Origin: an uncultured Acidobacteriota bacterium
Lineage (GTDB): Bacteria; Acidobacteriota; Thermoanaerobaculia; Multivoradales; UBA5704
Length of the DNA: 64,000 nt
Direction of reading: 5' to 3'
NCBI GenBank assembly: GCA_963761805.1
Contig: CAVXIV010000014.1
Coordinates: 362,692 to 426,691 of the forward strand
Within the stretch, counting starts at the first letter, position 1; every line of letters begins with the position of its first letter. Shown one piece after another: positions 6,001 through 41,994 of this stretch. The notes beneath the pieces were generated by a model. That model did not search any database. It had not been told where the DNA came from and was given only the letters and a program-made list of their open reading frames with translations. A program made the position numbers and the translations under genes.

Positions 6001-6303
6001 CTGGTTCGGGACGGTCTCCAGCACCAGGATGCCGTCGATCTCGGGGCCGGTGAAGTCGGCGAGCACGCGCAGGTCCTTCGGCAGGACCCCGCGGCTGGCG
6101 TCATAGCCTTCCAGATGGGTTTCGACGATCGTGGGCGTGTCGTAGGGAACGGTCTGGCTCTCCGGCGACACCTTGAGCCGGCTGCCGGCGATCAGCAGTT
6201 GCGCGTTGGCGAGGTCGGCCGCGGCGGCCGGCCGGGGCGCGAGCGGCGCGACCAGCATTCCTACGAACAGCAGAACTCCCCACCGAGAGCGTTTCCCGAT
6301 CAT
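1..6303 (-). CDS. Giant secreted beta-sandwich repeat protein (>2,100 aa; 3' end lies beyond the window), Ig-like/carboxypeptidase-regulatory-like repeats
   Basis: ATG at 6303 is preceded by GGGAGAG. My translation gives the signal peptide MIGKRSRWGVLLFVGMLVAPLAPRPAAAADL. I translated about 2 kb by hand without stops. No ORF in this minus frame appears in the track, which fits one unterminated ORF reaching position 1. The + strand ORFs 178..1479 and 1864..6600 are antisense shadows. Confidence 0.8.
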   Translation of the reverse strand, partial: MIGKRSRWGVLLFVGMLVAPLAPRPAAAADLANAQLLIAGSRLKVSPESQTVPYDTPTIVETHLEGYDASRGVLPKDLRVLADFTGPEIDGILVLETVPNQPFRIPRLRLQGEYRLDNIRLVEGEDLVAYAEPRSAAVLVTQVLITRVTSRALTLDEIRSYGIVVDDDSFQAFNFTFAFAVAGETIDYNVPVIYFGPTKEQVIGFWDLPGWHASSSRFTPPRMAPFQLKLDSQETSRDDSYGGCEALEGDCSRDDVIPIPGVILFPTDVSLLHQFFSVVLLAQNGAPANDPLRIHDLTAKVTLPPGLRQARTEPPTPLGVPVPVRVPGPDGELGTGDDLTFLVAQATGQAEVLVEGLKEGTHIVSFDLEGVLQGLPGGQVRRVTGKAQGAVIVRDPTLNVTITHPDVVREGEDYSMLLTVTNTGTAPANLMTIRLPLEKLSGVEVVGPNEKTVTVLPGDAEVVDFRLHPKRTGRVTSTAARAPSSITPAFELTVGVGENGIPLSPNAIILPRAADSLPPGLIRDSLNLLGLGFSLATAPPSLLRSDLPRVSRSTVDVRVYQIAQAGRHTQLGEELFDSAAQLAAEWTGARDAEWEWDLLRRTTQKGARVGASLGSIFAAEASATSPRAAFDRFAKTTGYLPVMQGALAVGQGVTLEVSSRTGGQRLSGGGLAADRVRELPFADLYSLGGAQMALLAVPEEGGYRATVRAGQSVSAALHLLAPGADGALRMVRWTGVSLSAGGVATAEFSAAASSFVLMVDSQGDGVVDDQIPGDVETLTRRPFQALAAVQNTEVDPTGHVVEVLFTTDVDPSSLAPQDPTRFTIPGKVSNGGLVQGEQDTINRAGRSVENPFEGLRNTRIVRVIFNNPLSPYTPQNLTVKGVKNPLGEQVTATTVEVAIPGNAMPGTVVEGTVFGPDGKPVPFAEIELRESDTCLFCEESCRTHKTAVVRADAGGNFLFDYVRQTDCSDIYQLKATDASNGHSGTATGRVRFVGQTVRLDVLMLGRGTVRGRVTYENGSVPEEARVIAESPVFREARAASIDANGNFSIADVPVGTITLSASDGQGRFVVQTIEVPAAGAVAEHNLVILRQPETPPTNGEIRGKILRPDGTTPVAGAYVALYVNGSLIGTRRSNADGTYDFGQAPAGHAEIETFEGETGQSGVQVFFELLPDRVNVVDLVMREERGVVTGFVYRKVNGSNVPLSGAIVWAEGTPFKTVTDAQGRYTLEGVFAGTRNISVADLEKKAKLSQAVTIGAEGQIVEKNFYFQDASSTVSGIAGEVLGFDGSPVFGATVHLAAGDQHWYRTAHSDSTGRFAIPDLGTGAYEVHAFKGTAGGKAVATIRFVGDTPFVTIRFKKGTIRGTVKAETAPGNVIGVTAVVTYRTTAVRLELVGLDLESHNITTDANGNFEIPEALAGPYVLTVTNSFYGSRTVRGDIVNHGDVLPHDFVFEADLTGNISGVVLNHDGVTPVQGAEVLLRHPNFSGYDLTTDAEGRFKFELVPPIINAFPIDVVYEDGTVFRKSQIWVRYNQRGQDLDVEIVLPKQGSISGRVADANGVVVPGAVVTLQENVYPRRALVVNADAEGSFELNNIFAGLVTLSARAPSLGGLGGKTTVEIKAEGEEVAGVTIFLEATGKLVGQVTLPPAPPVAEGSVVASAEVRLLRNGWLFDTINADAEGRFELNLLPLGWYEVIAFDPRTGRFGRSGSKYLGVNNQELAANVQLEARGTVDGHLYEPGTTLGVPGATIQLGAHSIRGFTTYSSTGADGSFSFLGIPQGKFDLTTREPGGRRRASGKGEIVTEGQTVTVDLFLDRQGTIVGSVLNPIGDPDGTFPNANTLIYQTGQIVGATLSSDYEFPGIILNEWFRMRTEEVGGPHRGEITGYLREEGPVRMDIRMRPIGSVKVDVFNSFGAPVPAAQLELNAEGFYGFKRLFADTGTDNSALFQDIGEGRVSAYATDPATGLKGSASGVVSTDGEIVQINLQLQSSGTITGVAVLADGTTPAVNALAALQIAGRTLTTFTDEAGAFTFPSVPLASFLLVFQENFGPGMREVRGSLATNGQVLDLGTIVLDDTNPKVVEISPEAGSVDLPLNTVVVVRFSE

Positions 6304-6596
6304 GACTCTCCCATCGGAAAAGCATTCGCTACCTGTCTCGCGGACTCGCGAGCCAGGGGGCGGCCTTCCGGTCTCTACATCTATGCCGGGAGGTATATCA
6401 CGGGGTACGGAGGGATTTTTGAAGGATCTTGCCCTTCAGCGCTTCACTGGATGAGAGCTTTTCTGACTATAGGAATTGCTCCTTTTCAGCAGGAGATCGG
6501 CGCTTTATCGATCACGCAAGACACCCCACCTTTCCACGCTCCACAGCCATCCTTCGGGGTGGTTTGCGGCTCGGCTTTCAGCTCTACATTTCATGT

Positions 6597-8786
6597 ATGA
6601 CGACGCGAATCGACACCGGCCCCCAAACCATGCGTCTTGAAGTCTTCGATCCGCCTCTCTGCTGCCCGACCGGCGTCTGCGGCCCGAGCGTCGATCCGGA
6701 GTTGATCAGATTCAGCTCCGATCTCGCCTGGCTCTGCGAGCAGGGCGTCAGCGTCGAGCGGTTCAATCTGGCGCAGCAGCCGCAAGCCTTCGCGGCGAAT
6801 CCTCGCGTCGCGGGCCTCCTCGGCACGACCGGCGTCGCCGCGCTGCCCCTCGTGCTCTGCGCGGGCGACGTCGTCGCGAGCGGGACCTATCCCTCGCGCG
6901 AAGCGCTCGCCTCAGCCGCCGGTCTGCAAGCCGCCGCCCCCGCAGCCGGCACGCCCGCGGCTGCGCGTGATCCGGCGCAAGTGCGAGCCGGGCTCGGGGT
7001 GCTGCTGATGTCCACCCTGCCTTTTGAACCGACGCGCATCGTCTTCTTCACCGGCAAGGGCGGCGTCGGCAAGACCTCGCTCGCCTGCGCCATGGCCGTC
7101 GCGCTCGCCGACTCCGGCCGCCGCGTGCTCCTGGTCTCGACCGATCCCGCGTCCAACCTCGACGAGGTCCTGGGCGTTTCCCTGACCGGCACGCCCCAGC
7201 CGATCCCGGCCGCGCCCGGCCTCTTCGGCCTCAACATCAATCCCGAGGCCGCCGCACGCGAGTATCGGGAGCGGATCGTCGGCCCGCTGCGGGGTTCCAT
7301 GCCGGCCGCGGTCCTCTCCGCCATCGCAGAGCAGCTCTCCGGCGCCTGCACGACCGAGATCGCCGCCTTCGACGAGTTCACCCGGCTGCTCGGCGACCTC
7401 ACGGCCACCGCCTTCTTCGACCATGTGATCTTCGACACCGCGCCGACCGGGCACACGCTGCGCCTGCTCAAGCTGCCGGCCGCCTGGGAAGGGTTCCTCG
7501 CCACCAACACCTCGGGAACCTCGTGCCTGGGCCCGCTCTCCGGCCTCCAGGCGCAGCGCTCCACGTATCAGGCGAGCCTCTCGGCGCTCTCCGACGCCGC
7601 CGCCACCACCTTCGCCCTCGTCGCCCGTCCGGAGGCCGCGGCGCTGGCGGAAGCGGAGCGCACCCGGGCGGAGCTGGCCGCGATGGGCATCGCCAACCAG
7701 CGGCTGTTCGTCAACGGCGTGTTCACCGCGGCGAATCGCCGCGACGCCATCGCCCTGGCGCTCGAACGCCGCAGCGCCGAGGCCCTCGCGGAAATGCCGG
7801 ACGGCCTGGCCCGCCTGCCGCGGCACGAAGTCACGCTGCGAACCTGGGCGCCCCTCGGCGTCGAGCGTCTGCGGGCGCTGTTCGCCGCCACGGCTCCCGG
7901 CGATGCCGCCGCACCCGTGGACGCCGGCATCGTCCCTGCCGCTCCGCTGAGCACGCTCGTCGACGCCTGCGAGGCCGCCGGCCGCGGCGTCATCATGACC
8001 ATGGGGAAAGGCGGCGTCGGCAAGACGACGGTCGCGGCGGCCATCGCGGCCGAGCTCGGCCGCCGCGGGCATCCAGTGCACCTGACTACGACCGACCCGG
8101 CCGCGCACCTGCTCGCTACGATCGGACACTCGGTCCCGGGCCTGCGCGTGACCCGCATCGATCCGGCCGCCGAGACCGGCGCCTACGCCGCTGAAGTGAT
8201 GGCGACCTCCGGGGCCGGCCTCGACGAGCGCGGGCGCGAGCTGCTCGCGGAAGACCTGCGGTCCCCCTGTACCGAAGAGATCGCCGTGTTCCGGGCCTTC
8301 GCCCGCACCGTGGGCGAAGCGGCCCGCGGCTTCGTGGTCATCGACACCGCGCCGACGGGGCACACACTTCTCCTCCTCGACGCGGCCCAGGCCTACCACC
8401 GCGAAGTCGAGCGCACTCACGGCGACGCGCCGGACGACGTGCGCCAGTTGCTGCCTCGCCTCCGCGACCCTGGCTTCACCAGGATCCTCCTCGTCACCCT
8501 GCCGGAGGCCACCCCCGTCCACGAGGCGGCTGCCCTGCAGGACGACCTCCGGCGCGCGGGCATCGAGCCGTTCGCCTGGGTGGTGAATCAGAGCTTCGCC
8601 GCGACCGCAACCGCGGACCCGGTCCTCGCGGCCCGCGGCCGGCACGAGGGCCCCTACCTGGACGAGGTCCGCACCTCCTTGGCGCGTCAGACCGCCGTCG
8701 TCGCCTGGCAGGCGGAGCGGCCGGTCGGCGCAGCCGCGCTGCTGTCGCTCGCACAAGCCGGCGTCGCCGAGCCGGCGCTGAGATAA
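6597..8786 (+). CDS. arsA: ArsD metallochaperone domain fused in frame to ArsA arsenite-stimulated ATPase
   Basis: The N-terminus carries the ArsD signature MRLEVFDPPLCCPTGVCGPSVDPELIRF...ERFNLAQQP. An Ala/Pro-rich linker of about 40 aa follows. Then come two ArsA halves, each with GKGGVGKT and DTAPTGHTL(R/L)LL. There is no stop between the domains. An alternative start is ATG 6630. The listed ORF start at 6429 is upstream junk. Confidence 0.8.
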   Translation: MTTRIDTGPQTMRLEVFDPPLCCPTGVCGPSVDPELIRFSSDLAWLCEQGVSVERFNLAQQPQAFAANPRVAGLLGTTGVAALPLVLCAGDVVASGTYPSREALASAAGLQAAAPAAGTPAAARDPAQVRAGLGVLLMSTLPFEPTRIVFFTGKGGVGKTSLACAMAVALADSGRRVLLVSTDPASNLDEVLGVSLTGTPQPIPAAPGLFGLNINPEAAAREYRERIVGPLRGSMPAAVLSAIAEQLSGACTTEIAAFDEFTRLLGDLTATAFFDHVIFDTAPTGHTLRLLKLPAAWEGFLATNTSGTSCLGPLSGLQAQRSTYQASLSALSDAAATTFALVARPEAAALAEAERTRAELAAMGIANQRLFVNGVFTAANRRDAIALALERRSAEALAEMPDGLARLPRHEVTLRTWAPLGVERLRALFAATAPGDAAAPVDAGIVPAAPLSTLVDACEAAGRGVIMTMGKGGVGKTTVAAAIAAELGRRGHPVHLTTTDPAAHLLATIGHSVPGLRVTRIDPAAETGAYAAEVMATSGAGLDERGRELLAEDLRSPCTEEIAVFRAFARTVGEAARGFVVIDTAPTGHTLLLLDAAQAYHREVERTHGDAPDDVRQLLPRLRDPGFTRILLVTLPEATPVHEAAALQDDLRRAGIEPFAWVVNQSFAATATADPVLAARGRHEGPYLDEVRTSLARQTAVVAWQAERPVGAAALLSLAQAGVAEPALR

Positions 8787-21575: not shown

Positions 21576-21609
21576 CCTCCCGCCCAGGCATGAATGCCTG
21601 GGCGGGAGG
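21576..21609 (+). terminator. Perfect 15-bp stem hairpin after the membrane-protein gene
   Basis: cctcccgcccaggca-tgaa-tgcctgggcgggagg, 7 nt after the stop at 21569. No T-tract follows. Confidence 0.45.
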
Positions 21610-21662
21610 TCGCACGGGCAACTCCGCTCGAATAAGATCCCGCCCTGGAAGGAGGAAACCTG

Positions 21663-22271
21663 ATGTCCGAAATCCAATGGCGGGACCGGCTCCAGCCGGC
21701 CCTGGAGGAGGCGCGGGAGGCGAAGAAGACCGTCCTGCTGTATTTCTGGACCACTGAGTGACTGGGCTGCCGCAAGATGGGTGCCGTGACGTACCCAAAC
21801 GCTGAAGTCGCCCAATTCGTCTCGGAGCGTTTCCTTGCGCTCAAGCTCAATCTCAAGGAGCCGCATCCGGACTTCAAGGAAGCGCTGGGGCGGGGCAAGT
21901 TCCTTTGGGCTCCCCTGCTCATCTTCCTGGACGGCCGGGGCAACGAGCTGCGGCGCTACGTGGGCTTCCTGCCGCCGGACGAGTTCCTGGCCGAGCTGAC
22001 CCTGGTCCTGGGCCTCCACGCCATGACCCACTCCCAGATGGAGGACGCCCTGCGGCTGTTCGACGAGTCGGCCGAGCGGTATCCGAAGGCGAGCGCCGCT
22101 CCCGAGGCCCTCTTCTGGGGCGCCGCGGCGGCCTACCGCATCGACGGCCTCGCCGCCGTCGTTCAACGCTGGGACGACCTCATTGCCCGCTATCCCGACT
22201 CCACCTGGGCGCGCCGGGCCGACGTGGTGCCGGACGAGGTCCGAGCCAAGCTGGCGGAAACCAGCGGATGA
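21663..22271 (+). CDS. Thioredoxin-fold protein with in-frame UGA at the redox motif (candidate selenoprotein, U-L-G-C)
   Basis: ATG 21663 sits 7 nt after AAGGAGG. The sequence MSEIQWRDRLQPALEEAREAKKTVLLYFWTTE-TGA(21759..21761)-LGCRKMGAVTYPNAEV... continues in the same frame as listed ORF 21777..22271. The TGA occupies the first Cys position of a W-x-x-x-C-x-x-C thioredoxin-like motif. Confidence 0.6.
21778..21797 (+). promoter_or_regulatory. Candidate bacterial SECIS-like hairpin
   Basis: ugggugc-CGUGAC-guaccca forms a 7-bp stem (one G-U pair) with a 6-nt loop containing GU. It starts 17 nt after the UGA. Confidence 0.35.
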
Positions 22272-27500: not shown

Positions 27501-28454
27501 TCAAATCCGTACCCCATATCTCGCCAGGATCGCGACCGTCAAAATCACATCGAACGCGATGATGTACATCCCCGCGTAGGTCTCCATCCGCTTGGCGGTC
27601 TTGCGGTTGGTATCGAACCGGTACTGGAAGAAGCCGATCAGACAGAGCAGGAAGAGCGCCACCAGGGCGGCATAGAACCAGGTGGACAGCCCCAGGTGCC
27701 AACCCACCAGGGCTACCAGGGCGGTGTCGATCACCCGGATCAGCAGGACCAGGTACGCGGCCCCGTACGTCCCGAAGATGCGCGTGTACGTCTCCACGCC
27801 CTCGATCTCGTCTTCGGGGGCGCGGATCTTCCGCGAGACTTCCCAGTTGAAGGTCACGAAGAAGCCCACCCAGGCATACATCCAGAACCAGAACGGCGCC
27901 TCCCAGGGCCACTGCCCCGTGGTGAAGCTGAAGACCATCAGCGAGAGCAGGGGCATCACCAGCAGGTGGCTCACGGCGTAGACCAGGAAGTGCCGCTTGA
28001 GCCAGTCGCGGACGAAGAACTCCTTCAGCATCAGGAAGGAGAAGACGAACGCCGCCAGCCAGGCCACGAAGGACGCCCGGCCGCCCAGGACGGAGAGGAC
28101 GATCTCCGTGGCGATGGCGATCCCGCCGAGAATCTTGAGGTCGCGCAGAGTGATGACGCCGCTCTGGAGGACGCGCTGGGGATGGTGGCGCAGGTCTTCG
28201 GCGTAGTCCTTGTGCTCGTCGAAGACCCGCAGGTGGAAGAAGAAACAGAACAGGGTCACGGCTCCGAGGAGGGTCGAGAGGTCGTAATGCATCGGCTCCC
28301 CCGGCTGGGTCAGGGCGCGGGCGAGGAACTGATTCGAGGAGTAATAGGCCGCGATCAGCACCCCGTGGCCCAGCAGCGGGAAGCGCTCCGCCAGATAGGC
28401 GGAGAGACGCCGGGGGAACGGCGATTCGCGGGTAAGGGCGGGGGCCGTGCTCAT
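27501..28454 (-). CDS. UbiA-superfamily prenyltransferase (divergent)
   Basis: 317 aa with about 8-9 TM segments. Asp-rich motifs FDEHKDYAED and APEDEIEGVETY. ATGA overlap with the upstream ligase. Confidence 0.65.
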   Translation of the reverse strand: MSTAPALTRESPFPRRLSAYLAERFPLLGHGVLIAAYYSSNQFLARALTQPGEPMHYDLSTLLGAVTLFCFFFHLRVFDEHKDYAEDLRHHPQRVLQSGVITLRDLKILGGIAIATEIVLSVLGGRASFVAWLAAFVFSFLMLKEFFVRDWLKRHFLVYAVSHLLVMPLLSLMVFSFTTGQWPWEAPFWFWMYAWVGFFVTFNWEVSRKIRAPEDEIEGVETYTRIFGTYGAAYLVLLIRVIDTALVALVGWHLGLSTWFYAALVALFLLCLIGFFQYRFDTNRKTAKRMETYAGMYIIAFDVILTVAILARYGVRI

Positions 28455-30016
28455 CCCTTCAGCAGCCGTTCGCGCAGGCGCGGATAGTCGATCTTGCTGT
28501 TGTGACGGGGATCGACCGGCATCGGATCGGCGGTGAGGCGGATCTCGTCCACCTCCAGACCGGCGGTCCGCAGGCGTTCGGCCACTTCCCGCTCGATCCC
28601 CTCCTCGTCGGTCTCGAGGACGACGACGACGCGCTCCCCCAGCGCCGGGTCCGGAAGGCCCACGGCGGCGGCGCGGCGGATGCGCGGGTCCTCCGCGCAG
28701 GCGGCCTGCTCGACGAGCTGCGGATGGACCAGCCCGCCGGCGCGGCGGATCGTGGAGTGGACCCGTCCCGCCAGCCAGAAGCGCCCCTCGCGGTCGAAGG
28801 AGCCGGTGTCCCCCATGCGGTGCCAGACGGCCTCGCCGTCCGCGATCTTGTTCTCGCGCACGGCCCGGGGGTTGCGGTAGTAGTCCCGGCAGACATGCTC
28901 GCCCGTGACCACCAGCTCTCCGATCTCGCCGGCCGGAAGCTCCCAGTCCGCCCAGCCTCCGTCTCCCAGCCGGATGGAAGCGCCATGGATGCGCACGATC
29001 TTCGCCCGCACCCGCTCCACGGGCCGGCCGGCGCAGAAGCCGGGGGTCAGCGGCCGGTCCTGGTTGATGGCCTCCAGCCGCTCCTCGGCGGTGAGGTGAG
29101 CCACGGGCTCGGCTTCGGTGGAGCCATAGGCCACCAGGATCTCGGTCCCGGGAAAAGCGCGCCGCCAGTCGCGGAGCTGGGCGTCGGCGACGGGAGCGCC
29201 GCCGGTCAGGGCGCGGCGCAGACCGGGCACGTCCCCGTGATGGCGGCTCACCTCGCCGGCGAGGCGGTCGAAGAAGGGGGGCGAAGCCGTGCAGGTGGTG
29301 ACGCCATGGCGCCGCATCTGGGCGAGGACGCGGGCGCCGTCCACCTGGTCCACGCGGCGGAAGTCCATGTCCGGCACCACGGAGGGGACTCCCGTGGCCA
29401 GGTTGTTGAGGGCGAACACCGGGAACATGGGCATGTCGACGTCGCCGTCCTCGGCCGAAAACTCGGCGGCCAGGGCGCGATGCTGGGCGAGAAGGAAGCC
29501 GTGGGTGCGGTTGGCGCCCTTGGGCTCGCCGGAGGAGCCGCTGGTGAAGGTGATGAGCGCCGGATCGTCCGGTGCGGCCGGATGGACCTCCCCGTCGCCT
29601 TCCGACTGCTCCAACTCGTCCAGGGCGCAGCCCGCCGGCAGCGGCCCCAGACGCCAGCCCGTGGTGACGGAGAAAGGGATGGACCGCAGGGGCCGCGAGA
29701 GCAGCCGCAGCAGGTGGCTCTTGGGAATGCCGATCCAGGCCCGGGGCTCCGCGAAAGCGGCGAAGGCGGCGATCTGCCGGCGGCCGATCCAGGGGTCGAC
29801 GAAGACCGCCACCGCTCCCATGTGCAGCACGGCCAGCATGGCCACGTAGAGATCGATCGACATCGGGATCATGACCACGGCCCGGTCCCCCGGCGCGAGG
29901 CCCAGACCGCGAAGCCCGGCCGCGGCGCGAGAGACGCGGTCCCAGAGATCGCCGAAGGTGATGGAGCCGTCGTCCCCTGTGATCAGCGCCGGCCGCGCCG
30001 GATGGCGGGCAGCCAT
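28451..30016 (-). CDS. Adenylate-forming enzyme (acyl-CoA synthetase/fatty-acyl-AMP ligase-like)
   Basis: Motifs TFTSGSSGEPKG, YGSTE and GDTGSFDREGRFWLAGR. Start set at ATG 30016. The listed start at 30241 adds 75 Arg/Pro-rich residues that overlap the amidohydrolase. The true start may be non-canonical, slightly upstream of 30016. Confidence 0.75.
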   Translation of the reverse strand: MAARHPARPALITGDDGSITFGDLWDRVSRAAAGLRGLGLAPGDRAVVMIPMSIDLYVAMLAVLHMGAVAVFVDPWIGRRQIAAFAAFAEPRAWIGIPKSHLLRLLSRPLRSIPFSVTTGWRLGPLPAGCALDELEQSEGDGEVHPAAPDDPALITFTSGSSGEPKGANRTHGFLLAQHRALAAEFSAEDGDVDMPMFPVFALNNLATGVPSVVPDMDFRRVDQVDGARVLAQMRRHGVTTCTASPPFFDRLAGEVSRHHGDVPGLRRALTGGAPVADAQLRDWRRAFPGTEILVAYGSTEAEPVAHLTAEERLEAINQDRPLTPGFCAGRPVERVRAKIVRIHGASIRLGDGGWADWELPAGEIGELVVTGEHVCRDYYRNPRAVRENKIADGEAVWHRMGDTGSFDREGRFWLAGRVHSTIRRAGGLVHPQLVEQAACAEDPRIRRAAAVGLPDPALGERVVVVLETDEEGIEREVAERLRTAGLEVDEIRLTADPMPVDPRHNSKIDYPRLRERLLKG

Positions 30017-30045
30017 CTGGCGGAGGACCTCGAGGACGTTGGAGG

Positions 30046-31404
30046 TCAGAACGACACTCCCGACCGCCGGATCAGCGCCGCCAGGCAGCGGGCCGATTCG
30101 CGGTAGATCTCTCCGAGGTCGAGATGCGCGAGCCGGCCTTCCTCGACGAGGAGGCGGCCGTCGGCCACGACGTGGCGGACGGCGGCGCGGGAGGTCCCGA
30201 AGGCCACGAGGTCGTGCGGGTCCGCCTGAGGCGCGGCCCACAGCTCGGGGCGCGCGGTCGTGAGCACGACGAGGTCCGCGCGCCTGCCGGGCTCGATGGT
30301 GCCGATCTCATCCTGGAGACCGATGGCACGCGCCCCTTCGCTGGTGGCGAGGCGCAGGGCGTCGAGGCCGGAGAAGGCGTCGGGGCCGTGCTTGACCTTC
30401 TGGAGCAGGGCGGCCAGGCGCAGCTCCTCGAAGTTGTCGAGATGGTTGCTGCACGCCGCGCCGTCGCACCCGATGCCGACCGGCACGCCGGCGCGGCGGA
30501 GGGCGAGGAGGTCGGCCACGCCGGAGCCCAGCTTCAGGTTGGAGCTGGGGCAATGGACCACGCTGAGCTGGCCTTCGCGCGCCCGGCCCAGGTGCTCGGC
30601 GGTGATCCAGACGCCGTGGGCGAGGCGCAGGTCGGTCGCCAGGATGCCCTGGTCGGAGAAGTATTCGATCTCGTCGCGCCCACCCTTCAGCTCGCGCACG
30701 GCGAGCGTCTCGTCCCGCTGCTCCAGCGCATGGGTGTGGACCGGCCAGCCGCGGCGCAGCGAGAGGTCGCGGATCCCCTCCCAGAGCGGATCGGAGCAGG
30801 TGAGGATGAAACGGGGATTGAGCGCGTAGCGCAGACGTCCCCCGGCCGCGCCGTCGAAGCGCTGGCCCAGGGCCTCGGTCTCGGCGAGCGCCGTGTCGGT
30901 CGTCAGGCGCATGGCGGCCGGCAGCGCTTCGCCGCTGTCCATCAGACATTGGCCGGCGAAGGCGCGCAGACCGGAGTCCTCGATCGCCTGGAGCAGGCCG
31001 CGCGCGCCGGGTCCGATGCCGATGTCCTGGATCGTGGTGGTGCCGCCGAGGAGGCATTCGGCGGCGCCGAGCATGCCGCACCAGTAGGCGCTCTCGTCGT
31101 CGTGGGCGGCTTCGAGGGGCCAGATGCGCTCGCGCAGCCAGGCGAGCAGACGCCGCCCTTCGGCGAGGCCGCGGAAGAAGGTCTGCCCCAGATGGAGATG
31201 CCCCTGGATGAGCCCCGGCAGCACGAGGCAGTCAGTGACGTCGAGCACGCGGGTCCCCGGCGGCGGCTCGGGCACGCCGAGCGAAGCGATGCGGCCGTCG
31301 CGCACCAGGAGGTCCGCGCCGCGCAGCACGGTGGCGCCGGCGTCCAGGGTGAGGATCGTGCCTCCGCGCAGGAGCAGGGGGGGGTCGGCTTGGTGGAATT
31401 GCAC
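30046..31404 (-). CDS. Amidohydrolase of the TRZ/ATZ-MtaD-guanine deaminase branch
   Basis: 452 aa with PGLIQGHLHLGQ (HxH), VHTHALE and GCDGAACSN. It lies in the same transcription direction as the ligase and 29 nt upstream of it. Confidence 0.7.
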   Translation of the reverse strand: MQFHQADPPLLLRGGTILTLDAGATVLRGADLLVRDGRIASLGVPEPPPGTRVLDVTDCLVLPGLIQGHLHLGQTFFRGLAEGRRLLAWLRERIWPLEAAHDDESAYWCGMLGAAECLLGGTTTIQDIGIGPGARGLLQAIEDSGLRAFAGQCLMDSGEALPAAMRLTTDTALAETEALGQRFDGAAGGRLRYALNPRFILTCSDPLWEGIRDLSLRRGWPVHTHALEQRDETLAVRELKGGRDEIEYFSDQGILATDLRLAHGVWITAEHLGRAREGQLSVVHCPSSNLKLGSGVADLLALRRAGVPVGIGCDGAACSNHLDNFEELRLAALLQKVKHGPDAFSGLDALRLATSEGARAIGLQDEIGTIEPGRRADLVVLTTARPELWAAPQADPHDLVAFGTSRAAVRHVVADGRLLVEEGRLAHLDLGEIYRESARCLAALIRRSGVSF

Positions 31405-31412
31405 CGGATTCT

Positions 31413-31568
31413 CTATTGGTCGCCTTCCTGGCGAATCCTTTCCTCGCGCATGCGCTTCAACTCCTCCTGCGTCATGAACTCATCAAAGGTGCCGAACTTC
31501 TGAACTAGTCGTTCCAGACGTCGACAACGTTGAGCTTGGATGATCGCTGCTTTGTCCGTCATCTTCAT
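31413..31568 (-). CDS. Small charged helical protein (51 aa), unknown function
   Basis: MKMTDKAAIIQAQRCRRLERLVQKFGTFDEFMTQEELKRMREERIRQEGDQ, with GGAGAG upstream. Lower GC. It ends 8 nt before the amidohydrolase start. Confidence 0.4.
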   Translation of the reverse strand: MKMTDKAAIIQAQRCRRLERLVQKFGTFDEFMTQEELKRMREERIRQEGDQ

Positions 31569-31585
31569 GATTCCCGCTCTCCTAA

Positions 31586-31743
31586 CCGTCCCTTCAGGGA
31601 CATTCGTGGGTAGCCCCACGGTTTCAACCTGGGGCGGGAGAGGTGGCTACCGTTGCCGGGCTTTGAGGGCATCCCGGTGAAGGTCGGTCTTTGTGCCCCA
31701 GGTTGAAACCTGGGGCTACCCACGAATGTCCCTGAAGGGACGG
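31586..31743. repeat. 158-bp element with near-perfect inverted arms (50 and 49 nt) and nested hairpins (MITE-like or structured RNA)
   Basis: The left arm 31586..31635 (ccgtcccttcagggacattcgtgggtagccccacggtttcaacctggggc) equals the reverse complement of the right arm 31695..31743 except for one extra C. The spacer is 59 nt. Each arm contains the local palindromes gtccc-ttca-gggac and ccccaggtt..aacctgggg. Confidence 0.85.
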
Positions 31744-31829
31744 TCCAGACAGAACTCTCCATAGGCATCCTCTACAAGCTCTGCGAGAATCCAGCAAAAT
31801 TTGCTCACGGAAATCATACTCTCACTCTC

Positions 31830-33174
31830 ATGGCTCCATCGGACCTCACCCTCCGCAGCCAGCGGGTCGTAACCCCCGAGGGCGTACGCCCCGCCACCCT
31901 CCACATCCGGCAAGGCCAAATCGACCACGTCACGCAGGACGTCTCGAGCCCCGCGCTCGACTGCGGCGACCTGGTCGTCATGCCGGGCCTCGTTGACACG
32001 CACGTTCACGTCAACGAGCCAGGGCGGACGGAGTGGGAGGGGTTCGAAACGGCTTCCCGGGCGGCGGCGGCCGGGGGGATCACCACGCTGGTGGACATGC
32101 CGCTCAACAGCATCCCCGCCACGACCACGCGGGCGGCGCTGCGGGCCAAGATCGAGGCGGCTAATGGGAAGGCGTACGTCGATGTCGGCTTCTGGGGTGG
32201 CGTGGTGCCCGGCAACGCGGGCGAGTTGAAGGGTCTTGTGGAAGACGGCGTCCTCGGGTTCAAGGCCTTCCTGGTCCCCTCGGGGGTCGACGAGTTCGAG
32301 CACGTCGGGGAGGCGGATCTGCGCGAGGCGATGCCGGAGCTGGCGCGCCATGGCGCCGCGCTCCTTGTCCACGCCGAGCTGCCGGGACCGATCCAGGCGG
32401 CCGCCAACGTCTGGGAGGGCGGGGACCCGAACGAGTACGGACGGTATCTGCGGTCCCGGCCCGACGCGGCGGAGGTCGAGGCGGTGGAAATGCTGGTCCG
32501 GCTCTGCCGCGAGACCGGCTGCCGGGTCCACATCGTCCACGTCTCTTCGGCGGAGGTCCTGCCGCTGCTGAAACGGGCGCGCAGGGAGCAGTTGCCGATC
32601 ACCGCCGAGACCTGCCCGCACTACCTCACCTTCGCGGCCGAGGAGATCCCGGACGGCGCGCTGGCCTTCAAGTGCGCTCCTCCCATCCGCTCGCGGGAGA
32701 ACCGGGAGCGGCTGTGGGAGGCCCTGCGCGAGGGGCTGCTCGATCTGGTGGCCACGGACCACTCCCCTTCCCCGCCCGAGTTGAAGGCGGGCGACTTCCG
32801 CGGCGCCTGGGGCGGGATCGCCTCGCTGCAGCTCTCCCTTCCCGCCCTGTGGACCGGCGCGCAGGGAACGCGGCTTTACCGTCGAGGATCTGGCGGAGTG
32901 GATGTGCGCCGCTCCGGCCCGTCTGGCGGGGCTGGGAGACAGCAAAGGCAGGATCGCTCCGGGATACGATGCCGATCTGGTGATCTGGGATCCGGAGGCG
33001 AGCTTCACGGTGGACCCTGGAAAGCTGCACCACCGGCACAAGCTGACCCCCTACGCGGAGCGGACGCTCTTCGGCTTGGTCCGGCGCACCCTGCTGCGCG
33101 GGGAAACGGTCTACGATAACGGCCGGTTTCCCGAGCCTCCTTCCGGGAAGCTCCTGAAACAAGGAGACCGATGA
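31830..33174 (+). pseudogene. allB: Allantoinase (cyclic amidohydrolase), interrupted by a +1 frameshift as assembled
   Basis: Motifs PGLVDTHVHVNEPGRTEWEG, GFKAF and VATDHSP. The frame changes at 32865..32868 (ggaa where 3 nt are expected). The C-terminus RGFTVEDLAEWMCAAPARLAGL... continues in the frame of ORF 32902..33174. Confidence 0.75.
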
Positions 33175-34604
33175 CCGACTTCACCGAGCTGACAGACCTC
33201 GCCGCCGAGCGCCTGGGTGGCGCGGTGCTCGCGGCGAACGACGATTTCTTCGCGCCCAAGGAGAACCTCCTCAAGGCCGGCGAGGCCGTGTGGATCGAGG
33301 GGAAGTACACGGACATCGGCAAGTGGATGGACGGCTGGGAGACCCGCCGCCGGCGCGAGCCCGGCTACGACTGGTGCCTCGTGCGGCTCGGGCTGCCCGG
33401 TGTGATCCGGGGCGTGGTGGTGGACACCAGCTATTTCCGGGGCAACTACCCCGAGTCCTGCTCTCTCGAAGCCTGCGCCGTCGAAGGCCACCCCACGCCC
33501 GAGGAGCTGATGGGCGCAGGCTGGACCGAGATCCTGCCGCGCTCGCCGCTCGAAGGACACTCGAAGAACCGCTTCTCCATCGAGACGGATACTGGCCGGG
33601 TCACGCACCTGCGCCTCAACATCTTTCCGGACGGCGGCGTGGCGCGGCTGCGGGTCCATGGCGAGGCCGTTCCCGATTGGGCGCGGCTCCTGCGGCGCAA
33701 AGGCGAGATCGATCTCGCGGGGGTCGAGAACGGCGGGGCGGTCCTTTCCTGCAGCGACATGTTCTTCGGCAACCGGCACAACCTGATTCTCCCCGGGCCG
33801 TCGCTGGGCATGCACGACGGCTGGGAAACGAAACGGCGGCGGGGCCCGGGGCACGACTGGGCCATCGTGAAGCTGGGCACGCGCGCCACGATCCATCGGG
33901 CCGAGGTGGACACCTCCCACTTCAAGGGCAACGCGCCGGGGAGCTGCTCGATCGAGGCGTGCGACGGAGATCTCGAGGATTGGCGGGAGATCCTGCCGCT
34001 CACTCCCCTGCGCCCCCACACCCGGCACCATTTCGACGAGCTGGCGGCGGCCGGGCCCTTCACGCACGCGCGGCTCAACATCTTTCCGGACGGCGGCGTG
34101 GCCCGTCTGCGGCTCTTCGGGACCGTCACCGTGCTCGACCGGCTGAACGTTGTCTCCAGCGAGGAAGCCGAGGCCATGCTCCTCCCCTGCTGCGGCTCGC
34201 GGGAGTGGGCGCGGCGGATGGCGGAGAGCCGGCCCTTCCAGAACGCCGGAGCGATGGAGGAAACGTCGGACCGCCTCTGGCGGAGCCTCGGCCGCGAGGA
34301 CTGGCTGGAGGCGTTCGCGGCCCATCCGCGCATCGGGGAACGAGGGGACGCGCGATCCCAGCGGGAACAGGCCGGAGCCCTCGGCGCGGGGGCGGACGCG
34401 CTCACGGAGCTGGCGGAGGCGAACCGTGCCTACGAGTCCCGTTTCGGTCACATCTTCATCGTCTGCGCCGCCGGCAAAAGCGCGGCGGAGATGCTGGCGA
34501 TCCTGCGCGGGCGGCTCGGCAACGATCCCGAGACCGAGCTGCGCGTGGCCGCCGAGGAGCAGCGGAAGATCATGAACCTGAGACTGGAGAAACTCCTGTC
34601 ATGA
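33171..34604 (+). CDS. alc: Allantoicase fused to OHCU decarboxylase
   Basis: Two allantoicase repeats (GWETRRRR / GWETKRRRG, NIFPDGGVARLR twice). From about residue 335 the OHCU decarboxylase region begins (LLPCCGSREWARRMAESRPF, AHPRIGE, FGHIFIVCAAGKSAAEML). Confidence 0.8.
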   Translation: MTDFTELTDLAAERLGGAVLAANDDFFAPKENLLKAGEAVWIEGKYTDIGKWMDGWETRRRREPGYDWCLVRLGLPGVIRGVVVDTSYFRGNYPESCSLEACAVEGHPTPEELMGAGWTEILPRSPLEGHSKNRFSIETDTGRVTHLRLNIFPDGGVARLRVHGEAVPDWARLLRRKGEIDLAGVENGGAVLSCSDMFFGNRHNLILPGPSLGMHDGWETKRRRGPGHDWAIVKLGTRATIHRAEVDTSHFKGNAPGSCSIEACDGDLEDWREILPLTPLRPHTRHHFDELAAAGPFTHARLNIFPDGGVARLRLFGTVTVLDRLNVVSSEEAEAMLLPCCGSREWARRMAESRPFQNAGAMEETSDRLWRSLGREDWLEAFAAHPRIGERGDARSQREQAGALGAGADALTELAEANRAYESRFGHIFIVCAAGKSAAEMLAILRGRLGNDPETELRVAAEEQRKIMNLRLEKLLS

Positions 34605-34942
34605 GCGGCATCACCACGCATGTCCTCGACACCGCGCGCGGCCGGCCGGCGAGCGGCGTTCCCGTCCTGCTGGAGATCCAGGAAGGGAACGGCTGGCGGG
34701 AGATCGGCCGGTCCCTGACCGACGGCGACGGCCGCGCCCGGCAGCTCCTGCCCGTGGGCTCCACGCTGGCCACGGGGATCTACCGCCTCACCTTCGGAAT
34801 CGGAACCTGGTTCCGGACGCAGGGGATCGAAGGTTTCTATCCCGAGGCCGCCATCGTCTTCCACGTGCGGGACGCGAACCAGCACTATCACGTGCCGCTG
34901 CTGCTGAGCCCGTACGGATATTCGACCTACCGGGGGAGCTGA
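34601..34942 (+). CDS. uraH: 5-hydroxyisourate hydrolase (transthyretin-like)
   Basis: 113 aa with HVLDTARGRPA and the C-terminal YRGS tetrapeptide. ATGA overlap with the upstream gene. Confidence 0.85.
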   Translation: MSGITTHVLDTARGRPASGVPVLLEIQEGNGWREIGRSLTDGDGRARQLLPVGSTLATGIYRLTFGIGTWFRTQGIEGFYPEAAIVFHVRDANQHYHVPLLLSPYGYSTYRGS

Positions 34943-34943
34943 G

Positions 34944-35777
34944 ATGCCTGTCACGCTGGCCGAAAACAGTTATGGAAAGCAGGCCGTCCGCCTGGTGACG
35001 GTGCGCCGCGGGGCGGACCGCCACACCTTGAAGGACGTCACGGTGGCGGTCCGTTTCGAAGGGGATTTCGCGGCGGCCTATACGGACGGCGACAACGAGG
35101 GCGTCTTCCCCACCGACACGATGAAGAACACCGTCTACGCCCTGGCCGCCGGGCATCCGTTCGACGACATCGAGGATTTTGGCCTGGCGCTGACCGATCA
35201 TTTTTTGCAGGCGAGCTCGCGGGCCTTGTCGGTCCGCGTGGAGCTTACCGAGCAACCGTGGGAACCGATCTCCTCTCACGCTTTCCAGAGAGCGGGCGGC
35301 GAGCGGCGCACGGCGGTGGTGACGCGCGACCGCGAAGGGGCTCGGGTGCTCGCCGGCCTCGAAAACCTTGTCGTGATGAAGACGGCCAGGTCCGCCTTCG
35401 AGGGCTTCCCTCGCGACCGCTATACGACCCTTAAGGAGACCGGCGACCGCCTGCTCGCCACGGCGGTTCAGGCGACCTGGCGCTACTCGCGGCCCCACGT
35501 CCCCTTCGGCCACTTCTGGAGCGAGGTGCGGCGCGCGCTGCTCCAGGCCTTCGCGGAGCACGACAGCCGCTCAGTGCAGCACACCCTCTACGCCATGGGC
35601 GAGGCGGTGCTCGAAACGGTGGACGTTGAAGAAATTCACATCGCCATGCCCAACCTGCACCACCTGCCGGTGGACCTCACTCCCTTCGGCCTAGAGAACC
35701 GCAACGAGATCTTCGTGGCGACCGCGGAGCCGTACGGGCTGATCGAGGGGACGGTGCGGCGGACCGGCAAGTCGTAG
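34944..35777 (+). CDS. uox: Urate oxidase (cofactor-independent uricase)
   Basis: 277 aa. The N-terminus NSYGKQAVRLV and the T-fold pattern fit uricase. Context with uraH and OHCU decarboxylase supports the call. Confidence 0.8.
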   Translation: MPVTLAENSYGKQAVRLVTVRRGADRHTLKDVTVAVRFEGDFAAAYTDGDNEGVFPTDTMKNTVYALAAGHPFDDIEDFGLALTDHFLQASSRALSVRVELTEQPWEPISSHAFQRAGGERRTAVVTRDREGARVLAGLENLVVMKTARSAFEGFPRDRYTTLKETGDRLLATAVQATWRYSRPHVPFGHFWSEVRRALLQAFAEHDSRSVQHTLYAMGEAVLETVDVEEIHIAMPNLHHLPVDLTPFGLENRNEIFVATAEPYGLIEGTVRRTGKS

Positions 35778-35793
35778 CTCGAGATTCCGCTGC

Positions 35794-35823
35794 TTGCCGA
35801 TTCCTTATTCTACATTGTAGAAT
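35794..35823 (+). promoter_or_regulatory. Candidate promoter (TTGCCG-N18-TAGAAT) overlapping a 17-bp palindromic operator-like site
   Basis: attctaca-t-tgtagaat at 35807..35823 is a perfect palindrome and AT-rich in a GC-rich background. It lies 13 nt upstream of the permease ATG. A PadR regulator is encoded just downstream of the permease. Confidence 0.35.
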
Positions 35824-35835
35824 CCCGGCTCAGCC

Positions 35836-38496
35836 ATGCCGTCTGAGCCGCACCCGCACCCCCTGATCCGCTCCACACCCCTCACGGGGATCTCCGCGGC
35901 TCTGTTTCGGGCGCTGCTCCCGTACGCCGAGCGCGAAGAGGTGCTCGAAGACCTCGCGGCGGAGCACGCGGACCGCGCGGCGTCCCAGGGACGTCTCCTC
36001 GCCCGCCTCTGGCTCTGGCGTCAGCTCCTCGGCTCCCTGCCCTCGCTCGCGCGCCGTAGCTGGTGGCGCGGGTGGACGGGCTTCGAGCCGCGCGCCAATC
36101 GAATGCAACCCGGAGGAATCATCGTGGAAAGCTGGATCATTGATTTGAGGTATTCCGCGCGCCGGCTCGCCAGCCGTCCGACGTACGTGTTGCTCGCGGT
36201 CCTCACCCTGGCGCTCGGCGCCGGCGGCACGGCCGCCATCTTCAGCGTCGTCCGGGCGCTGTTGCTGGATCCGCTTCCCGTGGCCCGGGAGTCCGCGGTC
36301 GGAGTGCTGTGGAGCACGAGCAGTTGGACCGAAGAGGAGTTCCTGCACTTCCGACCCGACTGGCCCGGCTTCCGGAGCATGGCGGCCTACAGGTCGCTGG
36401 ATGCCACGCTCGAAACGCCCGGCGAGCCGCTGCGCCTGATCCGTGGCATCTCCTCCTCCGCCGAGCTTTTCGACGTGCTCGGCAAGGGAGCGATGCTCGG
36501 GCGGACCTTCCAGAAGGGCGACGACCTTCCCAACGCCGAGCCTGTGGCGGTGCTGAGCCACGATCTCTGGCAGGAGCTTGGCGGCAACGCCTCGATCATC
36601 GGCCGCCAGCTCAACCTGGGCGGCTCGACGCGGACCGTTATAGGCGTGATGCCGCGCGGCTTCTGGTTTCCCAGCCCGGCGGTCCGGATCTGGACCGCGA
36701 CGCCCCTGAGCCCGGAGAGACAGTCCGGGGTCTACACCCTGATCGGGCGAGTCGCCGAAAACGCGCGGATCGACCACATGGAGGGGCCGCTCGGCGCCTT
36801 CACGGCGGCGCTCGGACGGCGGTTCGAGTATCCGCCGCAGTGGGATAAGACCAAGTCCCCGTCGATCACTCCGCTGCGCGAGTTCCTGGTGGGAGATGTG
36901 CGGCCGAGCCTCCTCGCGACACTGGCCGCCATGGTCCTGATCCTGCTCATGGCGTGCGTCAACGTCGCCGCGCTGATGCTCGGCCAGGTAGGTGGCCGCA
37001 GCTCCGAGCTGGCCGTGCGCACCGCCCTGGGGGCCGGGCGCCAGCGGCTGCTCCAACAGATCGTCATCGAGTCGCTGCTGATCGGCGCGCTCGCGGGCGC
37101 CGTGGGCGCCCTGTTCGCGGCGGGGGGGTTCCGGCTACTGGTCCGGTCGCTGCCGCTCGGCGAGCTGGCCGAGAGCGCACGGCTCGACTGGACCCTGTTC
37201 TGGGCCGCCACCCTCGTCGCCCTGCTGGCCGCGGCGGCGGTCGCCGTCATCCCGGGTATCGCGCTCTGGCGGGGCAACCTGCGGGGCTCGATGGCCACCG
37301 TCCGGAGCGGTGGGATCTCGGGCCGCGGCGACCGGCTGGAAGGCGGGCTGGTGATCGCCCAGATCGCGCTCGCCGTGCTGCTCGCGGCCGGGGCGGGACT
37401 GCTGATCCGCAGCGTCGACCAGCTCCGCCGGATTGATCCCGGCCTGCGGCCGGACCAGGTGGCGGTCCTCGACGTCACCATGCCCTCGCTGCTCTCCGGC
37501 GACGACCGGCGACGGGCCGTGCTCGACCTCCTGCCGCGGCTCCAGGTCCTCCCCGGCGTCCGGGCCGCGGCGGCGGTGCAGCGGCTGCCGCTCCGGGGCG
37601 GCGGCGACAACTGGGGCATCGAAATCGAGGGCAAGCCGGCGCGCGAGACCAGCACCACGTTCTTCCGCGTCGTGACGCACGACTACTTCCAGGCCCTCGG
37701 CGTGCCCGTGCGCCGCGGACGCGGGTTCCTGCCCACCGACCGCGAAAACACGGAGCGCGTCGTAGTCATCAACGAGGCACTGGCCGCGAAATACTTCCCG
37801 GGCGAGGACCCGATCGGCCATGTCCTCAATACCGGCTTCGAAGGCGGCGAGCGCATCGTCGGCGTGGTAGGGAACGTGGCGGAAGGGAATCTGACCGACG
37901 AGGCCGCTCCCGCGCGGTACATGCTCTTCGATCAGGTGCCTATGTACTGGCAGCAGGTCGCGTACGTCCTGGCGGGGGCGCGCCCCGAGGACGTGCCGCG
38001 GCTGCTCCAGGACGGCCGCGAAGCCGTGCGGCGGGAGGGACGGAACCTCGCTCTGGAGGGGACGGCCGCCATGGCGTCGGTCTTCGACGAAGCGGTCGGC
38101 GCGCCGGGGCAACTGGCCACCCTGCTCTCGCTGCTCGCGGCCCTCGCCCTGCTGCTGGGCGCGGTGGGCGTCTACGGTATGATTTCGCACTTTGTCTCGC
38201 GCCGGACGCGGGATTACGTGATCCGCATGACCCTGGGCCTGACTCCCGGACGGGTGGTGTCACACGTGATGGGCCGGGGCCTTCTCCTGGTCGGTCTCGG
38301 CAGCGCCATCGGCATCGCGGCGGCGCTGATGCTGACGCGCCTGCTCTCGTCGCTGCTCTACGGCGTGACCGCTACCGATCCCCAGGCGTTGACGGGCGCG
38401 GTGCTCGCCCTGCTGGCGGTGGGAGCGCTGGCCGCCTACATCCCGGCCCAGCGGGCGAGCCGGACCGATCCCGCCCTGGTGCTGAGGCAGCAATAG
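35836..38496 (+). CDS. ADOP-type duplicated MacB/FtsX-like ABC transporter permease
   Basis: 886 aa. An N-terminal cytoplasmic extension is followed by [44 protein letters not shown]. Two MacB-like periplasmic plus FtsX halves. Confidence 0.8.
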
Positions 38497-38499
38497 CGT

Positions 38500-38847
38500 A
38501 TGAAGACCTCCAAAACCACGGACCTCGCGCCGGTCGGAAGCTTCGAAGAGCAGGTGATGCTTGCCGTCCTCCGCACCGGCCCGGAGGCGTACGGAATGCA
38601 GGTGAGGCGCGAGCTCGAGCAGGTGACCGGCCGCGACGTGACCATCGGGTCGGTCTACATCACCCTGGACCGCCTGGAGGCCAAGGGACTTGTCGCGTCG
38701 GAGCGCACCACCGTCGGCGTGGAGTCATCCTCGCGCCGCGTCTTCTCCGTCACCGCGACCGGCGCCCGAGCGCTGGCTGAAACCAGAGCGCTCCGTGAAC
38801 GGCTGTGGGCTGGCGTGGACCTGGAGGGGTTGCTGCGGAAAGCCTGA
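38500..38847 (+). CDS. PadR family transcriptional regulator
   Basis: 115 aa. Winged-helix region FEEQVMLAVLRTGPEAYGMQVRRELEQVTGRDVTIGSVYITLDRLEAKGLV. Confidence 0.8.
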   Translation: MKTSKTTDLAPVGSFEEQVMLAVLRTGPEAYGMQVRRELEQVTGRDVTIGSVYITLDRLEAKGLVASERTTVGVESSSRRVFSVTATGARALAETRALRERLWAGVDLEGLLRKA

Positions 38848-38866
38848 GCGGTGCGGCGGAAGTGAT

Positions 38867-39133
38867 CTACAGCGACCGGTAGACCTCACGTCGATGCCGA
38901 ATACGGTGCACGGTGACCGTCTCGATCTCCGTCTCCACCTCATAGATCACACGATAGTCACCTACGCGGACCCGGTAGAGCCGTTCGGCATTGGCCAGCT
39001 TGAGGGACTGCGAAGAGAAAGGATTCTCCCCCAGATCCTCTATGGCTTCTAGAATGCGGGCCAGAATCTTCAGGGGAATCCTACGAAAATCTTTTTGTAC
39101 GGCGGGCTTGAGCTGGACCTTAAAGGAGGCCAT
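38867..39133 (-). CDS. RelE/ParE family type II toxin
   Basis: 88 aa with LYRVRVGDYRVIYEVETEIETVTVHRIRHRREVY. Confidence 0.8.
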   Translation of the reverse strand: MASFKVQLKPAVQKDFRRIPLKILARILEAIEDLGENPFSSQSLKLANAERLYRVRVGDYRVIYEVETEIETVTVHRIRHRREVYRSL

Positions 39134-39341
39134 CGTCGTGCAGACGCCGTTTCATCTCTTCCAGGCTGATCGGCTCCTCGCTCCGGCGTTCCGCGACCAC
39201 GGCTAGATCATGAAGATCCTCCATGAGGCGCTTATACTCCGGCAAAGGGATGATGACCGCCTGCCGCTTACCGTCACGATCCACGACGAACTGTTGGTCG
39301 TGGGATTCTGATTGGGCAACTCTTCTCTTCGATGATGCCAT
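39120..39341 (-). CDS. Type II antitoxin (Phd/YefM-like)
   Basis: 73 aa with QAVIIPLPEYKRLMEDLHDLAVVAERR. It overlaps the toxin start by 14 nt. Confidence 0.7.
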   Translation of the reverse strand: MASSKRRVAQSESHDQQFVVDRDGKRQAVIIPLPEYKRLMEDLHDLAVVAERRSEEPISLEEMKRRLHDDGLL

Positions 39342-39375
39342 CTACCGGTCTCCTTAGCTCCAAGTCTACTACGGC

Positions 39376-41529: not shown

Positions 41530-41994
41530 CCGTCCGTCTCCCGGTGGTCGCTCTCCCGGCAGACGGCCCGCAGGATGCCCTCGTACCCCGTGCAGCGGCA
41601 GAGGTTGCCGGCCAGGGCCTCCCGCGCCTCCTCGCGGCTCGGCTCGGGGTTGCGCTGGAGGAGCGCCCAGGCGGTGACGACGATGCCCGGCGTGCAGGCG
41701 CCGCACTGGACGCCGCCGGTGGCCACGAAGCGGTCCAGGAACTCGCGGGCCGGGCCCTGCGGCGATCTCCTCGACCGTCTCGATCCGCCGGCCCTCGCAC
41801 TGGAAGAGCGGCACCAGGCAGGAGAGGACCGGCTCGCCGTCCATCAGCACCGTGCAGGCGCCGCACTCCCCTTCGCCGCAGCCCTCCTTGGTGCCGGTCA
41901 GCCCGAGCCGCTCGCGCACCACGTCGAGCAGGCGTTCCATGGGATGGCCGTCGATCTCGACCGCGCCGCCGTTGAGAGAGAAGGAAGTCTTCAT
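41526..41994 (-). pseudogene. Xanthine dehydrogenase family [2Fe-2S] small subunit, one frameshift as assembled
   Basis: N-terminal part CGEGECGACTVLMDG...SCL. The second cluster region QCGACTPGIVV...NLCRCTGY is in another frame (ORF 41526..41726). The break lies near 41755. Confidence 0.7.

Follow-up and report, generated by a model that had tools for sequence, protein, structure and literature searches.

Among the high-confidence predicted selenoproteins of prokaryotes is a family annotated as 'Thiol:disulfide interchange protein', represented by WP_011366075.1, which belongs to PF13098 and carries a UxxC motif (PMC13188914, PMC9312934). The family has been reported in Geobacter metallireducens, G. 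uraniumreducens and Syntrophus aciditrophicus (PMC1794560). The hairpin expected downstream of a bacterial selenocysteine (Sec) codon is described by the bSECIS model as having a loop of 3-9 nt, a stem of 4-16 bp, a distance of 16-37 nt from the UGA to the loop and an MFE of -7.5 kcal/mol or lower (PMC13188914). The model also calls for a G within the first two loop positions, and the base after this G is usually a G or U (PMC13188914).

The locus described here lies at 21663-22271 (+) of a 64-kb stretch of DNA (the window) from an uncultured member of the Thermoanaerobaculia (Acidobacteriota). Judged from its sequence, the gene most probably encodes a functional cytoplasmic selenoprotein of the 'Thiol:disulfide interchange protein' family, a reading to which a probability of about 0.9 is given. 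On the same footing, it is a misannotated Thermoanaerobaculia member of a selenoprotein family that has been known since 2004, and not a new kind of selenoprotein. The solved structures closest to the predicted protein are the C-terminal (gamma) domain of DsbD and the DsbH-like thioredoxins.

Reading frame, family and homologues

A Shine-Dalgarno sequence, AAGGAGG, was read directly from the DNA at 21649-21655 (+) and is followed after 7 nt by ATG 21663; an equivalent GGAG or GGAGG was found in nearly all of the 55 reconstructed orthologues. Translation from this ATG gave a frame of 202 codons (21663-22271, +) that is open as far as its stop, TGA at 22269-22271, apart from a single in-frame TGA at 21759-21761, which is codon 33. 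This ribosome-binding site, start and interrupting TGA were as given in the original prediction, every coordinate of which was confirmed. The complete product could be aligned over its full length with the homologues P0049 and P0050 and with WP_011366075.1. The peptide around the TGA is ...KKTVLLYFWTTE-U-LGCRKMGAVTYP..., the longer N-terminal reading up to the TGA is MSEIQWRDRLQPALEEAREAKKTVLLYFWTTE-U-LGCRKMGAVTYP..., and the motif at the Sec site is Y-F-W-T-T-E-U-L-G-C. In the mechanical ORF list the gene is given 164 aa from ATG 21777 onwards (21777-22271, +), and the public record, P0001, is also of 164 aa and 100% identical to that ORF. The true product is almost certainly a protein of 202 residues with Sec33, as against the recorded 164-residue 'hypothetical protein', and the shortened ORF of the databases would be an artefact of stopping at the UGA.

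The 32 unannotated codons upstream of the TGA (21663-21758, +) had been taken for the beta1-alpha1 lead-in of a thioredoxin fold. Once they were restored, and with Cys written at the TGA, PF13098 (Thioredoxin_2) matched residues 17-112 with 38.8 bits (cut-off 27), and the Pfam models Thioredoxin_2, Thioredoxin_7 (PF13899) and Thioredox_DsbH (PF03190) matched across residues 3-113, in agreement with that assignment. Because the restored N terminus gives these thioredoxin matches, the TGA comes to lie on the first Cys of the CxxC motif, which is where it had been proposed to fall, and the full-length Cys homologues have their Cys exactly there. The UGA at 21759-21761 (+) is predicted, from the conservation of TGA or Cys in this column, to encode selenocysteine U33 as the first residue of a U-L-G-C redox motif. 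The TGC codon at 21768-21770 (+) encodes Cys36, the putative resolving Cys of the UxxC and an invariant column of the family alignment.

The relationship to the described family was apparent over the whole protein. BLASTP aligned residues 1-187 to WP_011366075.1 at 34% identity (E 9e-37), placing the U on the TGA, and hhalign of the reconstructed family profile against the same protein gave a probability of 100% over 189 aligned columns. WP_011366075.1, as given in the deep-Sep supplement, begins MAQIEWITS and reads FFNPGUIGCKQMDAVAYPD across its Sec. It is this full-length match, with Sec on Sec, that marks the window gene as a family member. The original prediction was right to treat thioredoxin-like UxxC selenoproteins as an established class, and the gene can be assigned to one specific established family.

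A protein search covering 5.8 billion sequences returned 164 relatives, nearly all of which are 147-170 residues long and start at the same Met, that of M-G/D-A-V-T-Y-P. Such uniform starts at one internal Met are the mark of an in-frame stop that brings gene callers to a halt. The full-length exceptions are few (P0049, P0050, P0060, P0065 and P0083) and have a C-x-x-C motif whose first Cys occupies the TGA column exactly; P0190 is another Cys form of the family. With a profile search, 1782 database proteins matched the family at E 1e-10 or better. Of 396 family proteins that were retrieved, 209 begin at the internal Met, and at the Sec column 123 have Cys, 19 have 'W' and five have Ser. The five Ser proteins are full-length members (P0166, P0181, P0211, P0265 and P0335), with P0211 reading FYNPESMGC. 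The Trp-translated Sec-UGA is found in some Logan, ENA and JGI gene calls and yields full-length proteins containing FFNPGWIGC (P0161, P0162, P0188 and 16 others; L070 361-363). One 'W' form, P0161, was checked in DNA, where a TGA had been mistranslated as Trp and the same hairpin was present.

A scan of DNA, using one genome per GTDB species, identified 63 loci. The N-terminal segment ran on upstream through a stop in 56 of the 63, and in all 56 that stop was TGA. Together with the window, TGA was therefore present at the Sec codon in 57 of 57 Sec-type loci, and six distant loci carried TGC or TGT at this codon. The Sec-type loci span at least four phyla: Acidobacteriota (Thermoanaerobaculia and other MAGs), Thermodesulfobacteriota, which contribute many of the loci (Desulfobaccales, Syntrophorhabdales, Syntrophaceae, Desulfomonile and Desulfobulbus), and the lineages Chloroflexia and Zixibacteria, with one MAG each. 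An ATG is located 31-37 codons upstream of the TGA in nearly all of these loci, behind GGAG or GGAGG. A shorter subfamily was also observed among Desulfomonile-like loci (L043-L056), with proteins of ~153-158 residues that have U-[PG]-[AS]-C as their motif and in which the helical tail is cut short. In two MAG loci (L014 and L041) the N-terminal segment upstream of the TGA looks frameshifted, with the ATG...EIQ reading displaced, probably through assembly error.

Coding constraint was estimated as pN/pS from Nei-Gojobori counts in three clades, with the codons upstream of the UGA compared with 120 codons downstream. The upstream values were 0.30, 0.30 and 0.20 and the respective downstream values 0.26, 0.25 and 0.33; in the Thermoanaerobaculia, pN/pS was 0.30 upstream versus 0.26 downstream. 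The similarity of the values on both sides of the UGA indicates that the upstream segment is translated in this frame. Homologues that begin at the equivalent of ATG 21777 and lack the N-terminal segment would have counted against the original prediction, but the segment is present in 56 other loci, with an ATG ~32-33 codons upstream, and is under purifying selection.

The window copy itself has some unusual features. Outside a C-terminal indel (codons 199-202), it differs from its 97%-identical relative L001 by 17 synonymous and four non-synonymous changes, and three of the four replacements sit in the first 32 codons. Residue 31 (21753-21755), two before the Sec, is Thr in the window and Pro in 52 of 56 Sec-type orthologues. 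Residue 23 (21729-21731) is likewise Thr in the window, and is Pro in 13 of 13 other Thermoanaerobaculia copies and in most of the wider family; all 13 of these copies have Pro at both positions. The replacements in the first 32 codons are compatible with a slightly relaxed constraint on the window copy.

It is very unlikely, however, that the gene is a pseudogene or a case of recent loss, in which either a Cys codon had changed to TGA or the lineage had lost Sec decoding, and which would yield nothing useful or a 164-residue fragment from 21777. The two Pro-to-Thr replacements could be read in this way, as could the lack of Sec machinery found within the window and the frameshifted appearance of neighbouring window genes, which points to defects in the assembly or the genome. 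Such a history is at odds with a TGA that is ancestral across several phyla and not a new mutation, with the excess of synonymous over non-synonymous differences from L001, with pN/pS values that are equal on either side of the UGA and with an intact ribosome-binding site and hairpin. In practice, the conservation of TGA in all Sec-type loci, across at least four phyla, excludes the pseudogene alternative.

Even less credible is that the annotated 164-residue ORF is the true product and that the upstream 32 codons are a leader peptide or an untranslated leader. All public annotations agree on this product and there is an ATG at 21777, but this ATG is not preceded by a Shine-Dalgarno sequence comparable to the perfect one before ATG 21663. 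A protein starting here would also be without beta1, alpha1 and the CxxC, which Pfam and the AF2 model described below place in residues 3-45, whereas the Cys homologues are single proteins of 186-221 residues that are colinear across the junction.

The hairpin downstream of the UGA

The selenocysteine reading is associated with a SECIS-type hairpin at 21778-21797 (+), which lies over the codons M-G-A-V-T-Y-P. In the computed fold, 21778-21784 pairs with 21791-21797 to give a stem of 7 bp, including one G-U, that is closed by the loop CGUGAC (21785-21790). The stem begins at the 17th nt past the UGA, and there are 23 nt between the UGA and the loop. A 7-bp hairpin with a GU-containing 6-nt loop, starting 17 nt past the UGA and in the range of SECIS elements, was part of the original prediction, and this description held: the loop of 6 nt, stem of 7 bp, distance of 23 nt and MFE of -10.4 kcal/mol are within all of the published bSECIS constraints. 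An MFE of -7.5 kcal/mol or lower was calculated for 52 of the 57 Sec-type loci. Note, however, that the fold of the 62-nt segment taken alone was unexceptional, with a z-score of -1.41 and 21 of 200 shuffled sequences folding as well, and that the significance of the hairpin comes from comparative evidence and not from stability alone.

Covariation was examined in a set of 51 distinct sequences, in which columns 21-26 pair with columns 33-38, counted from the T of the TGA. The six core pairs showed standard pairing in 96.7% of cells, compared with 21-61% when the partners were slid by 1-3 columns, and the observed covariation score was reached by none of 500 shuffles. Pair 23-36 was G-C in 29 sequences, A-U in 19 and G-U in two, and it couples a Gly (GGU)/Asp (GAU) replacement with a synonymous choice between the Tyr codons UAC and UAU. 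The locus is in this respect a clean example of a predicted SECIS hairpin inside a conserved peptide, in which an amino acid change is compensated by the choice of TAC or TAT for Tyr. At L036, two pairs had changed together (GGAAAC/GUUUCC). The third codon positions within the stem were close to fixed, with T in 49 of 51 sequences at column 24 and G in 49 of 51 at column 33, and those in the loop (column 27) and past the stem (column 39) were free. About 87% of third positions in this genome are G or C, and the fixation within the stem holds regardless.

The hairpin was lost in Cys-type genes even where these retained the peptide MDAVTYP. Four closer Cys forms had 2, 4, 3 and 5 of the six pairs left, with ACC/GAC in place of the ACG/GAU used by the Sec forms, and at the six distant Cys loci the hairpin MFE was only -0.9 to -3.6. 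The hairpin overlaps the peptide M-G/D-A-V-T-Y-P and, because this peptide is partly retained in the Cys forms, part of the conservation of the hairpin sequence is at the protein level. Taken across the family, the hairpin is conserved with covariation in the UGA orthologues and decays in the Cys forms. Two TGA-carrying homologues, L054 and L060, were without the conserved hairpin (MFE 0.0 and -1.7), and these may use a different SECIS or be decaying copies.

Least probable of all is decoding of the UGA as one of the standard amino acids, whether Trp, as in genetic codes 4 and 25, or Cys through near-cognate reading: the 19 'W' orthologues from some gene callers would fit, but TGA also serves as the stop codon of this very gene and of other ORFs in the window, which has 68% G+C, the homologues have Cys and never Trp from TGG at the Sec column, and the conserved, covarying SECIS-type hairpin is without a role in code-4 decoding.

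Sec decoding and genomic surroundings

Under the preferred reading, that of a selenocysteine codon, translation would initiate at ATG 21663 behind the strong Shine-Dalgarno sequence, and the hairpin at 21778-21797 would recode the ribosome at UGA 21759-21761 by recruiting SelB-GTP-Sec-tRNA(Sec), with selenocysteine being inserted as residue 33. Sec33 and Cys36 would form a U-x-x-C redox centre at the N terminus of helix alpha1 in a DsbD-gamma-like fold. This centre would be expected to cycle between the selenol/thiol and selenenylsulfide states, reducing or exchanging disulfides, and the helical, TPR-like domain at the C terminus is probably a docking site for a partner or substrate.

The genes for Sec decoding were sought in the 64-kb window and in the flanks of the 63 loci, and neither selA, selB nor selD (tblastn with the E. 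coli proteins) nor tRNA-Sec was found in either. Rfam at gathering thresholds, applied to the whole window, returned no tRNA-Sec and no other family. The one tRNA call from ARAGORN, a 'tRNA-???' with a 4-nt anticodon, cacg, at 36770-36845 (+), is probably spurious and lies inside a MacB/FtsX permease ORF (35821-38496). As the sel genes are absent from the 64 kb searched, we infer Sec decoding, and with it Sec insertion in this organism, from the gene itself. Sec-using Acidobacteria are on record in the literature, and a literature search combining Thermoanaerobaculia or Acidobacteria with selenoproteins found no report. The window was also scanned for other in-frame TGA codons with a coding signal on both sides, and this returned only an ordinary gene junction at 61446.

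The gene is flanked by a membrane protein gene upstream and by a gene for a HAD phosphatase (LHPP-like) downstream, the start of which overlaps the selenoprotein stop in the window (ATGA, 22268-22271). Synteny of these neighbours is confined to the Thermoanaerobaculia, and no operon partner is common to the different phyla. Between the stop of the upstream gene and the selenoprotein ribosome-binding site there is a perfect 16-nt inverted repeat (21576-21609; CCTCCCGCCCAGGCAT / ATGCCTGGGCGGGAGG) with a 2-nt gap. Further complementarity exists between the left arm and 21642-21656, which includes the Shine-Dalgarno sequence (73%), and between the right arm and 21638-21648 (91%). The repeat is absent from the 97%-identical L001 and has no second copy within the window; it could be a lineage-specific insertion, a terminator or a translational-control hairpin.

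Elsewhere in the window, a purine/urate degradation cluster was observed at 28451-45240, containing amidohydrolases, xanthine-dehydrogenase-like subunits, DUF6986, an allantoicase fused to an OHCU decarboxylase (33120-34604) and a uricase (34908-35777). Purine-catabolism genes at 39376-45240 (-) appear to be split across frames: inside the DUF6986 gene a run of ~50 codons is out of frame and contains two stops, and the xanthine-dehydrogenase-like Fer2, FAD, MoCoBD_1 and MoCoBD_2 domains sit in different overlapping ORFs. These split genes are either assembly indel errors or pseudogenes. At 6423-8786 (+), ArsD (residues 71-172) and ArsA ATPase domains were found in a single stop-to-stop ORF, which represents a fusion or else two genes that share a frame. 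A giant protein of >2145 residues with CarboxypepD_reg repeats (1-6435, -) runs off the left end of the window, and a lantibiotic dehydratase N-terminal domain (63307-63999, +) runs off the right end.

The practical value of the assignment is a correction of annotation. No NCBIfam model covers the family, the best matches being seleno_TsoB with 48 bits (cut-off 805) and DsbD with 40 bits (cut-off 330), and for this reason members are still shortened in annotation; the same shortening hits most members of this large family. The known range of the family is extended from Geobacter and Syntrophus to the Thermoanaerobaculia, Chloroflexia and Zixibacteria, and Sec decoding by these Thermoanaerobaculia is implied. 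The locus opens no new question in selenium biology.

Protein architecture and comparison with known systems

An AF2 model of the Cys homologue P0050, the nearest full-length relative at 45% identity, was used to stand in for the window protein. The model (pLDDT 95.4) showed a thioredoxin fold with the CxxC at the N terminus of helix 34-43, and six helices from residue 105 to the C terminus. Foldseek with this model identified DsbD-gamma (E 1e-8; TM 0.70-0.76 on the target), and a PDB sequence search identified the DsbD C-terminal domain (E ~1e-13). The thioredoxin-fold, DsbD-gamma-like domain of the window protein comprises residues 3-113 (21669-22001, +). It is followed by a C-terminal helical, TPR-like domain at residues ~114-190 (22002-22232, +), for which there were sub-threshold NCBIfam matches to tol_pal_ybgF and BamD, together with PDB matches to CpoB (6g5s) and YbgF (2xev). 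The window protein showed no signal peptide, hydrophobic N terminus or membrane segment, and its fold starts at residue 3. The protein would accordingly be a putative selenol/thiol-disulfide oxidoreductase of the cytoplasm, whose helical domain may dock a partner. A more speculative and very unlikely proposal, suggested by the thioredoxin-TPR architecture, is that the family is a Sec-dependent, CnoX-like 'seleno-chaperedoxin' that would hold and reduce specific clients, in the Thermoanaerobaculia maybe together with the downstream HAD-type phosphatase.

For residues 3-113, the best match in both structure and sequence is DsbD-gamma (PDB 1uc7, 2fwe and 1vrs), in which the CxxC is in the same position. 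However, in DsbD the gamma domain forms the periplasmic terminus of a membrane protein with three domains, the others being a transmembrane beta and a periplasmic alpha domain, whereas the window protein is a free-standing chain of 202 residues in which Sec replaces the first Cys and a TPR-like tail follows the fold. An identification of the gene as DsbD was rejected, as only the gamma-like fold is present in its 202 residues and there is no hydrophobic N terminus.

CnoX/YbbN (PDB 3qou and 3qdn; Foldseek ranks 15 and 18) has the same order of an N-terminal thioredoxin fold and TPR-like helices, and is cytoplasmic. The superposition was poor, however (TMq 0.40-0.42, rmsd 11-12 Å, 11-13% identity), and the likeness is one of architecture only. 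In CnoX the motif is SxxC, and the protein functions as a holdase.

In common with the E. coli fdhF-type SECIS and the bSECISearch consensus, the window hairpin is a stem-loop located just downstream of the UGA inside the coding region, with G-U at loop positions 2-3. Its sequence is unrelated to that of the fdhF element, and its role as a SECIS is predicted.

The closest likeness in sequence over the full length is that to the WP_011366075.1 family. The two are colinear throughout and share PF13098, the U-x-G-C motif, the Sec column, the hairpin peptide M-[GD]-A-V-[TA]-Y-P and a helical C-terminal tail with APEA...YP.S.W. They differ in that the published hosts are deltaproteobacterial whereas the host of the window is a member of the Thermoanaerobaculia (Acidobacteriota), and in that the window protein has Y-F-W-T-T-E-U-L-G-C in place of the commoner D-F-F-N-P-x-U-I-G-C.
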